From Acinetobacter phage AM24: a stretch of DNA of 64,000 nucleotides. Of the stretch, positions 40,582 to 45,304 are shown in pieces. The notes beneath the pieces were generated by a model, which saw only the letters and a list, made by a program, of their open reading frames with translations, was not told the origin of the DNA and searched no databases. Each line of letters opens with the position of its first letter. Position 1 is the first letter of the stretch. The translations under genes were made by a program, and so were the position numbers. The stretch lies in sequence record KY000079.2. One strand, written 5' to 3'.

Positions 40582-40993
40582 AGACTATTTCGAAGAAGTA
40601 CTTTATTGCCTAGATGGTTATGTAGCAAGCCATAATGAAAGAAATTTCGGTGATGCTGATGAGTGGTTGCGTCATGTTAGAAATGACTGGGAAAAGTTTA
40701 CTGACAATCATGATTCAAGTTTAAATCCACTTGAGCATTACCGTGAAGAGTTGAATGCAAATAAAGTTTTTGCTGCTGTCCATGTAATTACTGAATCCTG
40801 TGATCATTACAACTACCTTCTAGAAGTTCAAGATTGTAGTGATTTAATTGAGCAGTTGATATCAAGTCTTGGTCATGAGTTTGCGCATATATGTGATGTT
40901 TACGTGACAATGCCAGATGATTTTGATACAAACGCAGTAGAGGCAAGTATTATGTGTCGAAGTGCTAAGTATTTGGAAGGAGGTGATGATTGA
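40574..40993 (+). CDS. Hypothetical protein.
   Basis: RBS gggggaggtgatgaagatg. 139 aa. Confidence 0.35.
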   Translation: MSKDYFEEVLYCLDGYVASHNERNFGDADEWLRHVRNDWEKFTDNHDSSLNPLEHYREELNANKVFAAVHVITESCDHYNYLLEVQDCSDLIEQLISSLGHEFAHICDVYVTMPDDFDTNAVEASIMCRSAKYLEGGDD

Positions 40994-42024
40994 GTTTAAC
41001 AAAAGAGTTTTTTGAAAGAGATACAAACATCACCGCTAAGGTTATTGCTGACAGTATTTCTCCTTCGGGACAACGTATCACGACCTTTGAGGTTGAATAT
41101 CCACGTTTTATTCTTGCTGAGTTGAACACTCATAAGATGTTGGAAAAGAATTCATCAAGTTCTCGTGCTATTCCCATCATTAAAATGATTGAACAAATTG
41201 AAACTAATGGTGCAACTCCTCTATACTGGGGTAAAACTAAGTCAGGGATGCAAGCTGGGGAAGAGGTGGTTGGAAATGACCTAAGTGTTATACAATACTT
41301 GTGGGACTTGGCACGATCAAATGCTGTAGCATCAGCAGATATTTTATCTCAAATGGGGTTGCATAAACAAACATCTAATCGTTTGCTTGAACCTTTTCAG
41401 ATGATGAAGACTGTCATAACTGGTACTGACTGGGATAACTTCTTTAACTTACGGATTCATCCAGATTCTCAGCCAGAGTTCTGTATGTTGGCTTACAAGA
41501 TGTATATGGCTATGAAAGAGAGTACTCCTGTAAAATTAGTTGCTGGTCAATGGCATTTACCATTTGTTCACACTTTTATTAGTAAAGAGGGTGTTCAATA
41601 TTATAGCGATGGTATTAATCCTCTGAGTGGTGGTAAACAACTTTCACTTGAAGAAGCTATTCGTGTATCTGCATCGTGTTGTGCTCAAACATCATACCGT
41701 AAGAGTGATGATTCATTAGAGAAAGCTGATAAGATTTTCGACATGTTGATCAAGGCAGATGTGCTTCATGCTTCACCTTTTGGTCACTTGGCTACTCCTG
41801 TGCGTGAGTACTGGCAGAACCCGAAACCTTATTTGGATGATGTAAACTCTATGGATTATAGCACTTGGGAGAAAGGTATTACTCATATGAACCGTAAAGG
41901 TGTTCTATGTTCAGGCAACTTGACTGGTTGGATTTCATATCGACATCTTATTCCAAACAATACATGTTATGAATTTGATTTTGAAGAACGTATGAAGCTC
42001 TTCTCAGATGGAAGTGTTTCTTAA
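40990..42024 (+). CDS. ThyX-like protein (flavin-dependent thymidylate synthase fold) with atypical motifs. TTG start.
   Basis: An HxSPFxH-type motif (LHASPFGHL) and a degenerate RHR..S-like segment (LNTHKMLEKNSSSSRA). RBS ggaggtgatga. It is encoded alongside nrdAB and a dCMP deaminase. Confidence 0.4.
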   Translation: MSLTKEFFERDTNITAKVIADSISPSGQRITTFEVEYPRFILAELNTHKMLEKNSSSSRAIPIIKMIEQIETNGATPLYWGKTKSGMQAGEEVVGNDLSVIQYLWDLARSNAVASADILSQMGLHKQTSNRLLEPFQMMKTVITGTDWDNFFNLRIHPDSQPEFCMLAYKMYMAMKESTPVKLVAGQWHLPFVHTFISKEGVQYYSDGINPLSGGKQLSLEEAIRVSASCCAQTSYRKSDDSLEKADKIFDMLIKADVLHASPFGHLATPVREYWQNPKPYLDDVNSMDYSTWEKGITHMNRKGVLCSGNLTGWISYRHLIPNNTCYEFDFEERMKLFSDGSVS

Positions 42025-42034
42025 GGAGGTGTAC

Positions 42035-42424
42035 ATGGCTTATGTACGAGCAAGCCACAAGGATGTGGTAGAGTTACTTACACAGGGAAACTATGAAGTA
42101 ACCAAGGAAAATATTTATAAAGCATTACATTTGGTTTTTGGTTTTGATAGAACTCGTAGGGGTGAGTTTGGAATTGAAGATTCTGAAACGGCTTTATCGG
42201 AGAATGATATTGGCAAAAAGCGTTGGTTTAGTGTAGATGCATACCAACATAAAACCTTGGATGGTGAAGTGGTGGTTGGGTTAATGTACATTGGCTATGA
42301 ACGTAAGGATGAGGATTGGATTCAAAATGGACGACCTTCAGAGGAAGTTAAAATGGAAATTCGAAATGATCCATCTTACAATGCTTTAATTGCTGGTTTA
42401 AGTCGAAGACGACCTGTTAGTTAA
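42035..42424 (+). CDS. Hypothetical protein.
   Basis: RBS aaggaggtgtacatg. 129 aa. Confidence 0.4.
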   Translation: MAYVRASHKDVVELLTQGNYEVTKENIYKALHLVFGFDRTRRGEFGIEDSETALSENDIGKKRWFSVDAYQHKTLDGEVVVGLMYIGYERKDEDWIQNGRPSEEVKMEIRNDPSYNALIAGLSRRRPVS

Positions 42425-42465
42425 CGATTAAAATTTGAAGTGTTTCTTTATAGAGGCAAACCTAA

Positions 42466-42492
42466 AGGCTCACCTCTGGTGGGCTTTATTTG
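42466..42492 (+). terminator. Probable rho-independent terminator.
   Basis: Stem gctcacc / ggtgggc (one G-U pair) followed by tttattt. Confidence 0.35.
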
Positions 42493-42546
42493 TATGTAGT
42501 TTTAATATACATAGGTTTTTGAAATAAAAGTGTAAAGGAGTTTTAA

Positions 42547-44316
42547 ATGGGAAAAAATATTACCCGTAAAAGAGAGGATGGCCGTAACACCCGTAACCGT
42601 GACTACAGACAAGAAATTGGAGAAAGAGATTTATACATCAGTGAGAAGCACAAACAACAACGTGAAGAGTATATTAAACAAAACCCAATTGTTCCATTAA
42701 ACCCCAAACAACGTAGATATATGGAACTCTTAGATGAGAAGAAGTGTATCATTGCTACAGGCTTTGCAGGTTGTGTTGATGCTGATACAGAATTCTTAAG
42801 TGAATCTGGCTGGAAGCGCATGGCAGATTATGTTGTTGGTGATAAAGTCATGCAAGTCAGTCAAGAAGGTTTATTGGGAAGTTTTGTTGATCCAGTTCAA
42901 TATATTAAACGTGAGTGTGATTGGTTCTACCACTTCAAGACGCATCGTGGTATTGATCAAGTTTTATCCGAAGAGCACCACGTCGCGTATACGATAAAAG
43001 ATCGATTACGGCTGAACAAAGTGTTAGTTGCTGATCTTGTAGAAAGTTTGGATTACAAACCTAATGGCTTCCTAGGTAAAATTCCTTGTATCTATAGATT
43101 TAATGGCAATAGTTTGGGTTTAAGTGATTGGGATATTAGACTTGGTGTTGCTATCAAAGCGGATGCACATCTCGCTTCTGAGACAACAGGACGATATGTC
43201 TTTCGGCTAAAGAAAGAGCGTAAGGTTGAAAGACTTAAGTGGATTTTGGAAAATATGGGGCGTGATTATAAACTACGGCACTTAGAAGGTGGGTATACTG
43301 AAATCCAAGTCTATGCGCCAGAACACACAAAAAACCTTGCAGATTGGATGTTTTGCTCAAAAGAAGATGCAGAAATAATTATGAGTGAATATCAATACTG
43401 GGATGGGGATTCAAAACCATCTGGGTCTAGGTTGCCTAGATTTTCGACATCTAGGAAGACAGAAGCTGACGCCATGCAGTACTTTGCAAACATTTGTGGG
43501 TATCGTGCAAGTATTACTGAGGTGACTTCAGATTGTGCGTTTAAGCATGTAAAAAAGGTTTACAAATATGAAGGTCGTGTGATGTACACAGTTAATTTAA
43601 CGAAACAAACGCACATACGCTTGACACCAAAAAATCGTGTTACAGGAGAGATTGTGAAACCAGATAAAATCCCAAGTGTTGATGGGTATAAATATTGTTT
43701 TGAAGTTCCATCTGGTTTCTTGTTACTTAGAAGAAACGGCAAGGTGTTTGTAACAGGTAATACATCTAAAACATATATCCCCACAGCTATCTTTGCAGAT
43801 TTATACCGTACAGGAAAGCTTAAGAAAATTGTTTTAATTAGACCAGCCGTGTCTAATTCTAAGAGTTTAGGTTATTTTGCAGGGACTATTGAGCAAAAGA
43901 GTTCTGTTTGGTTGGCACCTGTTATTGATGTGCTATACAAGCGTCTAGGTCGTCCAGCAGCCCTACAAGCTATCGCTAATGGTGACATTGAGTTTGTTCC
44001 TATGGAAACAGTTAAAGGTCGAAGCTTTGATGAAGACACAGCAGTTATTGTTACGGAAGCTGAAGATTGTACCAAAGAGGAAATCATGTCTCTACTAACC
44101 CGACAAAATGGTTGTAAGATGGTCATTGAAGGTGATGTTCGACAAAGTGCACTTCGAGAGGAAAGTGGTTTGAAGATGGCTATTGATCTTTACTCTAAGC
44201 ACAAATCATTACAGGAAACTATGGGGTTAATCAGCTTTGATGATGTTCAAGATATTGTCCGAAGCCCTGAATGTAAAATTTGGATTAAGGTATTCGTTAA
44301 AGAGGGTTTGATGTGA
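42547..44316 (+). CDS. phoH: PhoH-like ATPase interrupted by a 330-aa intein in the P-loop.
   Basis: After removal of the intein, the extein Walker A is ATGFAG/TSKTY (GxxGxGKTY). The C-terminal PhoH signatures are VIEGDVRQSAL..ESGL and DDVQDIVRSPEC. Confidence 0.7.
   Translation: MGKNITRKREDGRNTRNRDYRQEIGERDLYISEKHKQQREEYIKQNPIVPLNPKQRRYMELLDEKKCIIATGFAGCVDADTEFLSESGWKRMADYVVGDKVMQVSQEGLLGSFVDPVQYIKRECDWFYHFKTHRGIDQVLSEEHHVAYTIKDRLRLNKVLVADLVESLDYKPNGFLGKIPCIYRFNGNSLGLSDWDIRLGVAIKADAHLASETTGRYVFRLKKERKVERLKWILENMGRDYKLRHLEGGYTEIQVYAPEHTKNLADWMFCSKEDAEIIMSEYQYWDGDSKPSGSRLPRFSTSRKTEADAMQYFANICGYRASITEVTSDCAFKHVKKVYKYEGRVMYTVNLTKQTHIRLTPKNRVTGEIVKPDKIPSVDGYKYCFEVPSGFLLLRRNGKVFVTGNTSKTYIPTAIFADLYRTGKLKKIVLIRPAVSNSKSLGYFAGTIEQKSSVWLAPVIDVLYKRLGRPAALQAIANGDIEFVPMETVKGRSFDEDTAVIVTEAEDCTKEEIMSLLTRQNGCKMVIEGDVRQSALREESGLKMAIDLYSKHKSLQETMGLISFDDVQDIVRSPECKIWIKVFVKEGLM
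42772..43761 (+). mobile_element. Intein with a degenerate LAGLIDADG-type endonuclease domain, inserted in the Walker A motif of PhoH.
   Basis: Block A CVDADTEFLSESGW, block B FKTH, LAGLIDADG-like LGVAIKADAHL and YWDGDS, and a C-terminus ...GKVFVTGN followed by the +1 Thr. Confidence 0.65.
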
Positions 44317-44918
44317 GTGGAAAAGGAATGGTTTGTGGTCATGGTATAAATGACTTTAAAGACCGTGTAAACATCAATGGCAAGATTGTCAGAGAGTATT
44401 GTCTATGGAAATCTATGTTGGCTAGATGTTATTCACCTATCTTCCACAAGCAAAACCCAACCTACAAGGGATGCGAAGTGGAACCATTTCTCCTATCCTT
44501 CACAAACTTCTATAATTTCGTAAGAAGTTTAAAGGGTTTTGGTGAGGTTGATGAGAAAGGTAGACCCTTCCAGATGGATAAAGACTTGTTGGTTAAGGGG
44601 AATAAAACTTATAGTGTTGATACTATTTGTTTTGTTCCTTGGGAAGTTAATGCGTTTTTAACAAACAATACTGCGGTTCGTGGTGATTTGCCAGTTGGTG
44701 TTGTCTATCATAAAAGAGATGATGTATACCAAGCAACCTTGAGGTTATATGGGAAGACAACTTATCTAGGATCTTTTGAGACACCTGAAGCGGCTTTTGT
44801 TGCCTACAAAAACGCTAAAGAAGCTCAAGCTAAAGTTTTAGCTGAAAAGTGGAAAGATAAGATTGACCCTAGAGTGTATGATGCGCTAATAAATTATGAG
44901 GTTAATATAGATGACTGA
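44313..44918 (+). CDS. AP2-domain putative homing endonuclease.
   Basis: The C-terminal AP2/ERF-like DNA-binding region is VGVVYHKRDDVYQATLRLYGKTTYLGSFETPEAAFVAYKNA. The N-terminus has the W..M..RC motif seen in phage HNH/AP2 endonucleases. Its start overlaps the phoH stop. Confidence 0.5.
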   Translation: MSGKGMVCGHGINDFKDRVNINGKIVREYCLWKSMLARCYSPIFHKQNPTYKGCEVEPFLLSFTNFYNFVRSLKGFGEVDEKGRPFQMDKDLLVKGNKTYSVDTICFVPWEVNAFLTNNTAVRGDLPVGVVYHKRDDVYQATLRLYGKTTYLGSFETPEAAFVAYKNAKEAQAKVLAEKWKDKIDPRVYDALINYEVNIDD

Positions 44919-45276
44919 AGGCTTTACAAATGCTGTTGAAAACATGAGGTTATGTGAAAATAATCTGTTAGAGGCTATCAATCGAGTATTTGAAGAGTAT
45001 GCTAAGATGGATTATTTCAATGATTGTTATTTGAATATGACAGAGGCAATCGATGATATAATTTTGAATTTCAACAACTTAATTGATAAAATTAATAATT
45101 TTAATTTTTCTTATGAAAAAGTGTTGACAAAAAATTTTTCTGTTGGTAAGATATGCTACATATTAAGAGCAGAATTAAAAGTTAACGATGAAACTGGCAT
45201 GGTTTATATTAAAAATTATGAAGTTTCAAAAATTAACTTTGATGGTTCTGAAAGTATTGTTATATCTGGAGAATAG
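44911..45276 (+). CDS. Hypothetical protein.
   Basis: 121-aa ORF. It contains an internal promoter-like sequence near its 3' end. Confidence 0.35.
   Translation: MTEGFTNAVENMRLCENNLLEAINRVFEEYAKMDYFNDCYLNMTEAIDDIILNFNNLIDKINNFNFSYEKVLTKNFSVGKICYILRAELKVNDETGMVYIKNYEVSKINFDGSESIVISGE
45124..45152 (+). promoter_or_regulatory. Sigma70-type promoter with extended -35 aaaagtgttgaca.
   Basis: -35 ttgaca (45124-29), 17-bp spacer, -10 taagat (45147-52). Confidence 0.35.
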
Positions 45277-45304
45277 ATTATGAAAGACTTTTAAGGAGAA
45301 AACT

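Follow-up and report, generated by a model that had tools for sequence, protein, structure and literature searches.

The phoH gene of Acinetobacter phage AM24 very probably carries a full-size intein, composed of a Hint splicing domain and a two-motif LAGLIDADG homing endonuclease, in the Walker A motif of the encoded PhoH protein. Our analysis covered a 64,000-nucleotide stretch of this phage (sequence record KY000079.2), referred to below as the window. The open reading frame (ORF) at 42547-44316 on the plus strand encodes a PhoH precursor of 589 amino acids (aa) that is interrupted by the insert. Its translation reads ...KCIIATGFAG up to the first border, CVDADTEFLS...RNGKVFVTGN from end to end of the insert, and TSKTYIPTAI beyond the second border. 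The insert occupies nucleotides (nt) 42772-43761 (990 nt, 330 aa) and is in frame and stop-free from Cys1 to Asn330; ORF translation returned exactly the coordinates and length given in an initial annotation, which had been made from the sequence alone and had proposed an intein in the PhoH Walker A motif. That proposal was borne out by the borders, an empty allele, homologous inserts in unrelated hosts, the predicted fold, and a relative that splices. We regard the intein as genuine and probably active. The parts of the intein and of its host gene are as follows.

42547-42771, plus strand: N-extein of PhoH, aa 1-75, ending in ATGFAG, the first half of Walker A; 223/225 nt as in phage Bestia
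42772-43761, plus strand: predicted intein, 330 aa, Cys1-Asn330, from its exact absence in Bestia, Herod, Mithridates, and Ab15, its homologues, and its fold
42772-43086, plus strand: predicted Hint N-terminal lobe, residues ~1-105 (borders approximate), from the beta strands of the model and alignment with the AceL NrdHF and Spl DnaX inteins
42772-42774, plus strand: block A, Cys1, in 29/29 family members
42967-42969 and 42976-42978, plus strand: block B, Ser66 and His69, in the motif Ser66-Glu-Glu-His69
43117-43611, plus strand: predicted LAGLIDADG-type endonuclease domain, residues ~116-280, from the model, Foldseek, and Asp conservation
43162-43164, plus strand: Asp of LAGLIDADG motif 1 (...LGVAIKAD131A)
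43402-43404, plus strand: Asp of LAGLIDADG motif 2 (...EYQYWD211G)
43612-43761, plus strand: predicted Hint C-terminal lobe, residues ~281-330, from the family alignment
43696-43698, plus strand: block F, Cys309, in 29/29 family members
43753-43761, plus strand: block G, Thr328-Gly329-Asn330, from the family alignment
43762-44316 including the stop, plus strand: C-extein of PhoH, starting with Thr+1 (43762-43764) in TSKTY; 543/555 nt as in Bestia, with TSKTYIPT invariant in the clade

We examined the host protein with and without the insert. Against the precursor, the Pfam PhoH model (PF02562) matched residues 400-582 only (profile positions 22-203, E 1.3e-34); against the 259-aa sequence left when the insert is taken out, it matched at profile positions 2-203 of 205 (E 5.2e-41, 140.8 bits with a cut-off of 27). 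Comparison of the exteins with the PhoH family, a check that the initial annotation had proposed, thus gave a full-length profile match and restored the P-loop of the clade. Removal of the insert yields the Walker A sequence GFAGTSKT, with Ser before Lys-Thr, and the insertion point lies between Gly75 and Thr76, after the fourth residue of the motif (GxxG/xSKT, where the slash marks the insertion). The initial annotation had the restored P-loop, GFAGTSKTY, right in sequence and wrong in pattern, which is GxxGxSKT, invariant in the clade, and not GxxGxGKT. Across the clade, the P-loop (42757-42771 plus 43762-43785 in the window) reads ATG[F/Y/L]AGTSKTYIPT, with Ser replacing a Gly of the canonical GxxxxGK[ST]. 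This variant is unchanged across orthologues from Acinetobacter, Pseudomonas, and Vibrio phages of 46-77% overall identity, and because it is invariant at such distances, we take the Ser as a conserved variant rather than a sign of decay. The host would accordingly be classed, by its sequence, as a predicted PhoH-like P-loop ATPase with the clade-variant Walker A GxAGTSKT. A Shine-Dalgarno-like AAAGGAG lies upstream of the phoH ATG.

Close relatives without the insert define its borders at nucleotide resolution. The annotated phoH of Bestia (780 nt) was identical to the joined window exteins at 766/780 nt and 258/260 residues, and at its empty site precisely 990 nt were missing, with 30 nt on each side of the junction identical to the window. 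The sister phages that matched just the two flanks were Bestia, Herod, Mithridates, and Ab15, whereas the insert-bearing sisters YMC13/03/R2096 and P577 are A. baumannii phages whose gene is 97.7% identical to that of the window at the DNA level. When we compared the 11 PhoH records of the phage collection that lie closest to the window (at least 76% identity), an interruption was seen only in YMC13/03/R2096 (two records) and P577. The exteins shared 99% aa identity with intein-less alleles. The initial annotation had held that its proposal would fall if the insert were a conserved PhoH subdomain; since the closest orthologues lack the insert, that alternative is refuted, and the pattern of presence and absence is typical of a mobile element. 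Between the inteins of the window and YMC13/03/R2096, we counted 19 nt differences and six aa changes, none of them in the splicing or LAGLIDADG motifs. Base composition was host-like (GC 38.9% in the intein vs. 38.7% in the host gene; GC at third codon positions, GC3, 31.2 vs. 30.0%). Together, this composition and the small number of aa changes, all outside the motifs, indicate an intein that is resident and under purifying selection. A recent foreign acquisition was unsupported, as the intein matches the exteins in GC and GC3. A search of the 64-kb window for another copy of the intein family found none.

The insert belongs to a widespread family. A tblastn search with the insert alone matched 202 phage records, and in 193 of these the match extended over at least 80% of its length. 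Together with the exact empty site in Bestia, these relatives place the insert far outside what chance would give. The hosts included RtcB ligases (Corynebacterium, Pseudomonas, and Bacillus phages), primase/helicases, RecD-like helicases, PhoH-like proteins of Vibrio phages, ribonucleotide reductase (RNR) alpha subunits (Staphylococcus and Shigella phages), DNA polymerases, NAMPT, and large terminases. A mycobacteriophage protein annotated as ‘intein-containing topoisomerase primase’ (TOPRIM) was a further host, and the Turj99 TOPRIM intein matched too. A metagenome protein search added eight PhoH proteins, one DnaC-like protein, and one metallophosphatase, and the family was seen overall in at least 10 unrelated protein families. 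Full-length homologues were 24-54% identical to the insert and in frame. Those with both ends present started with Cys, ended in Gly-Asn (Gln-Asn once), and were followed by Cys, Ser, or Thr; Thr+1, as in the window, also occurred in the members from KIL1, Vibrio 1258, and Vibrio 277E43. In several unrelated P-loop hosts, insertion was at the same G/x-G-K-[ST] site. Compared with the window, the inteins of other PhoH proteins were 41-54% identical, whereas their exteins were only 23-34% identical, which indicates that the element moved horizontally between diverged phoH genes rather than codiverging with them. Two metagenome members resemble the usual steps by which homing endonucleases decay, here within a single family: in P0013, the intein in a GSGA/SGKD loop is a mini-intein of 156 aa from which the endonuclease domain is missing, and P0011 carries Asn in place of both LAGLIDADG acidic residues.

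Both the host gene and the type of site have precedents. Bacterial PhoH, with 21 inteins, ranks within the first 15 intein hosts by frequency, and P-loops are a recurrent intein site, as in DnaB-b, MCM-a, and RFC-a (PMC4760082). Those PhoH inteins are reported from chromosomes of Actinobacteria and Deinococcus-Thermus (PMC4760082), whereas the window intein is in a phage of a gammaproteobacterium, the comparison being by host gene. The TerL1-a intein occupies the ‘classic’ Walker A site, Lys/Thr (PMC5050341), in contrast to the window site after the fourth Walker A residue. The basic picture is unchanged: inteins in the P-loops of phage ATPases are expected.

To describe the splicing residues, we counted conservation in a 29-member alignment of the family. 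Cys1 (A:1), His69 (B:10), Cys309 (F:4), and Asn330 (G:7) were each present in 29/29 members, Gly329 (G:6) in 28/29, and Arg320 in 27/29, as was Ser or Thr at block B. Position G:5 was Thr in 23/29 and otherwise Cys or Ser, with Thr and Cys together accounting for 28/29. Position B:12, Val71 in the window, was V, M, I, or F in the family and never Trp, and none of the 29 members had a His at the position aligned with F:13. Of the LAGLIDADG acidic residues, Asp131 was kept in 27/29 members and Asp211 in 26/29. The features of a class 1 intein found in the window are thus the in-frame, stop-free insertion, Cys1, the Ser-x-x-His block B, and Asn330 followed by Thr; the penultimate His is lacking, and Gly329 stands in its place. 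Blocks A and B (Cys1 and Ser66-x-x-His69, with Cys1 and the His in every member) and the Gly-Asn end followed by a +1 Thr (Gly329-Asn330 and Thr76), all named in the initial annotation, were confirmed.

To investigate the fold, AlphaFold2 was run on a 14-sequence alignment of the family. The resulting model (mean predicted local distance difference test score 89.3, predicted template modeling score 0.87) has beta-rich N- and C-terminal parts and a center made of two alpha-beta-beta-alpha-beta-beta-alpha repeats. Its LAGLIDADG helices span residues 119-131 and 197-210, ending at D131 and W210/D211; the degenerate LAGLIDADG segments picked out by the initial annotation (LGVAIKADAHL and YWDGDS) correspond to the C-terminal ends of these two predicted helices, with D131 and D211 kept. 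Foldseek searches of the PDB returned, in order, TliVMA (7.6e-12), PhoVMA, PI-SceI, PI-PfuI, PI-TkoII, AceL NrdHF, and many I-DmoI structures, with probability 1.00 to solved inteins and with AceL NrdHF as the best Hint-only fold match. Like the window intein, PI-SceI (1vde), TliVMA (7qss/7qsu), PhoVMA (7qst), and PI-PfuI (1dq3) combine a Hint domain with a double LAGLIDADG domain (E 7.6e-12 to 9e-9, TM-score 0.5-0.6). However, they are only 10-14% identical to it, have a penultimate His, and interrupt V-ATPase and RNR hosts of yeast and archaea. The model thus predicts a Hint fold for the insert together with a double-motif LAGLIDADG domain, in which two helices with a terminal acidic residue lie in a duplicated fold.

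A homologous intein has been studied experimentally. The intein in gp51, the RDF (a phosphoesterase) of mycobacteriophage Bethlehem, is spliced almost completely in E. coli when the native Gly316 is kept at the penultimate position, and a G316H substitution slows splicing (PMC5050341). Owing to toxicity in E. coli, it could be cloned only with the endonuclease-inactivating mutation R157W (PMC5050341); R157 aligns with R169 of the window intein, which the model places in a beta-strand of the endonuclease domain. The Bethlehem insert (317 aa, C95...T-G-N411/S) aligned with the window intein from end to end in a pairwise comparison (E 1e-12). This intein and the cluster A1 TOPRIM inteins share with the window intein Cys1, Cys F:4, Thr-Gly-Asn, Ser, Thr, or Cys at +1, and a LAGLIDADG-type domain, and the Bethlehem element is likewise phage-borne and located beside an invariant active-site motif. 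In contrast to the window intein, these relatives (~22% identity) have a metallophosphoesterase or a primase as host and come from phages of Actinobacteria, not Acinetobacter. Earlier work has already described and tested phage-borne class 1 inteins that lack the penultimate His (PMC5050341).

From the invariant residues and the family, above all the Bethlehem RDF intein, we infer the following order of splicing and acyl transfer. Translation would produce the 589-aa precursor with its ATP-binding loop split, and because Walker A is divided between Gly75 and Thr76, this precursor should neither bind ATP nor be active. The Hint domain would fold, and Cys1 would attack the carbonyl of Gly75 to form a thioester. 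The N-extein would be handed to the hydroxyl of Thr+1, cyclization of Asn330 would release the intein, and an O-to-N shift would create the Gly-Thr peptide bond of a 259-aa PhoH with the same length and P-loop as in the intein-free sisters. Since the intein splits the ATP-binding loop, PhoH activity in intein-bearing phages should depend on splicing. The expected masses are 68 kDa for the precursor, 29.5 kDa for the ligated PhoH, and 38 kDa for the intein. The expected tryptic peptide across the spliced junction is CIIATGFAGTSK, and those of the precursor junctions are ...GFAGCVDADTEFLSESGWK. The freed 330-aa intein would then act as a site-specific endonuclease, cutting intein-less phoH around GCAGGT/ACATCT at coinfection, and the element would spread as the cut copy is repaired on the intein-bearing one (homing). 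Homing of this kind has indirect support: the intein is distributed sporadically, it has diverged less than the exteins, and the homologous RDF endonuclease is toxic in E. coli.

Several observations weigh against an active class 1 intein with a functional endonuclease. Gly takes the place of the penultimate His, and the stretch from Cys309 to Asn330 contains no His; cyclization of Asn would therefore have to be helped otherwise, and the conserved Arg320 is a candidate for this role. The search with Hint/intein profiles that the initial annotation had put forward as a check came back empty, as the Pfam and NCBIfam intein and LAGLIDADG models gave no match to the window sequence at E ≤ 1. The sole NCBIfam line for the insert was VioC (E 0.029), which is noise. 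Among 14 relatives searched against Pfam, Intein_splicing matched 1/14 (1.8e-4), and LAGLIDADG_3 weakly matched 4/14. LAGLIDADG motif 1 ends in Ala and not Gly. Moreover, the 60 nt around the empty site in Bestia are the same as the window flanks, so the presumed homing site persists uncut in nature, which fits either phages that do not come into contact or a weak or inactive nuclease. Finally, the invariant Cys at F:4 and kinship with a proven class 3 intein make a first acyl acceptor other than Cys1 possible.

This last point leads to the alternative that survives best, in which the insert is an intein that uses a class-3-like or relay route with Cys309 as an obligatory acyl carrier before Thr+1. 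Cys309 would either attack the N-terminal scissile bond itself or take the N-extein from Cys1. The proven class 3 relative is the split intein AceL NrdHF (PDB 6zgq), which has Ala1, Ser65 (B:7), His68 (B:10), Met70 (B:12), Cys124 (F:4), Pro128, Thr144-Gly145-Asn146, and Ser+1 (PMC7891396). C124A/S mutants and branched intermediates established Cys124 as its first nucleophile, and G145H abolishes its activity (PMC7891396). It shares with the window intein Ser B:7, His B:10, a non-Trp B:12, Cys F:4 with a Pro four residues later, Thr-Gly-Asn, the absence of His helpers, and a phage-like origin. In contrast to the contiguous, LAGLIDADG-bearing window intein with its Cys1, AceL NrdHF has Ala1, is split, carries a free-standing GIY-YIG gene between its halves, and interrupts RNR beta. 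A phmmer search of the PDB with the single insert sequence reached only E ~0.3, listing two NSE1 chains (by chance) and AceL NrdHF, whereas the family profile placed AceL NrdHF as the best PDB sequence match (7.8e-10, above any class 1 intein; 49.9 bits with the 29-member profile), and it was also the best Hint-only fold match. A phmmer search with the N-terminal part of AceL NrdHF found no other intein in the PDB. The constancy of Cys F:4 (29/29), Thr G:5 (23/29), and Gly G:6 (28/29) in the family also favors a role for Cys309.

Nevertheless, we consider it quite unlikely that Cys309 is an obligatory carrier in the AM24 intein. A Cys1 that is present in 29/29 members is hard to explain if it is unused. 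Class 3 is defined by a missing N-terminal nucleophile (PMC7891396, PMC5050341), and the window intein, because it has Cys1, is not class 3 by definition. Among the residues that mark class 3, it has Cys F:4 and Thr G:5, with the blocks assigned by motif comparison with AceL NrdHF, but Val instead of Trp at B:12. The correspondence of blocks F and G is based on motif spacing only, using the published residue numbers of AceL NrdHF, because a phmmer search of the PDB with the mini-intein P0013 gave chance matches only. Moreover, Cys is the second commonest F:4 residue among inteins generally (PMC4031507), and the homologous RDF intein was treated as class 1 by Kelley et al. (PMC5050341).

A broader version of this idea seems to us somewhat less improbable, although still doubtful: members of the family may pass the N-extein from Cys1 to Cys309 to Thr+1, or use either cysteine, and AceL NrdHF would be an Ala1 offshoot of this family and not kin of the canonical Trp-Cys-Thr class 3 inteins. 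Although AceL NrdHF has been reported to show little conservation with other inteins, it matches this Cys1-bearing family, and by sequence it may be an Ala1 derivative of it. If the broader version is true, class 3 chemistry arose at least twice. A transition from class 1 to class 3 by point mutation has been argued to be improbable (PMC7664689), and a family with both nucleophiles and an Ala1 offshoot would be a natural counterexample. With Cys1, Cys F:4, and Gly-Asn in a compact intein that has both a proven class 1-type and a proven class 3 relative, the window intein offers a convenient substrate for asking how the two routes interconvert.

A decayed intein that no longer splices, leaving the phage without functional PhoH and the insert as a tolerated disruption, is very unlikely. 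The missing penultimate His and the failure of curated intein HMMs (hidden Markov models) to recognize the sequence would fit such decay, as would the Thr at +1. Thr is a comparatively weak +1 nucleophile. Loss of phoH, an accessory phage gene, might also be tolerated. However, every splicing residue that is invariant in the family is intact, all 330 codons are open, and the changes relative to YMC13/03/R2096 are mostly synonymous and spare the motifs. The Gly-Asn end is functional in the Bethlehem RDF and AceL NrdHF inteins, Thr+1 is common to other family members, and the exteins are conserved, at 99% aa identity to intein-less alleles. That the insert is no intein at all, but a lineage-specific PhoH subdomain, an intron, or an in-frame free-standing endonuclease gene, has its sole support in the failed Pfam and NCBIfam intein models and is effectively refuted by the closest PhoH orthologues, which lack exactly the insert, by the same insert in at least 10 unrelated families and its modeled Hint fold, and by the absence of internal stops with Cys1, Asn, and a +1 nucleophile at the exact borders. 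An intron was also searched for directly, and no Rfam intron or other RNA family was found in 42000-45300 at E ≤ 1.

Although unannotated in GenBank, the AM24 intein is a typical representative of a phage intein family that is already known. In public records of the sister phages, the 589-aa protein is labelled ‘PhoH-like’, ‘phosphate starvation-inducible’, or ‘hypothetical’, and our literature search found no paper on an intein in PhoH of Acinetobacter phages. Because standard intein HMMs miss the family, phage inteins of this type are systematically under-annotated, and surveys that rely on gene length or on phoH as a marker gene will misread them. Intein polymorphism among therapeutic-candidate A. 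baumannii phages that are >96% identical provides a ready natural system for the study of homing. In Pseudomonas phage KIL1 (NC_030934, 55002-57803), the family member in the primase/helicase P-loop (GSASG/...TGN/TGKS) lies in a coding sequence annotated as a two-piece join, and the record seems to treat this intein as though it were an intron.

We also examined the genes around phoH.

40990-42024: counterpart of the ThyX-type thymidylate synthase annotated in Bestia and YMC13/03/R2096, upstream of phoH
42008-42424: small hypothetical gene, upstream of phoH
44313-44918, plus strand: HNH-endonuclease-like gene, 201 aa, from a PHROG match

The initial annotation had called the product of 44313-44918 an AP2-domain homing-endonuclease-like protein. 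Its endonuclease character agrees with the PHROG label, as the product matched ‘HNH endonuclease’ families (phrog_953, E 3e-75, at profile positions 194-389 of 420 only, the C-terminal half). The AP2 assignment was not confirmed: no Pfam HNH or AP2 model and no PDB sequence matched the product. A motif conserved with a Vibrio phage homologue, QxDKDLLxxGNKxYSxD...N, has Lys where the His of HNH is expected. Relatives of this gene occurred in 1452 phage records. The gene is present in the window, present with a premature stop in the intein-less Bestia, and absent from the intein-bearing YMC13/03/R2096. Because the gene and the intein vary independently among relatives, the HNH-like gene is a second, independent mobile element without a functional link to the intein. 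At the 3' end of phoH, the stop codon (TGA, 44314-44316) shares bases with the GTG, at 44313, that was taken as the start of the next ORF; in Bestia, the annotated start is the ATG that corresponds to 44328. The window joins an intein, as in YMC13/03/R2096, with an HNH-like gene, as in Bestia, a combination seen in 0/7 matching public records. Its C-extein is 97.8% identical to that of Bestia vs. 95.9% to that of YMC13/03/R2096, and this pattern suggests local mosaicism.

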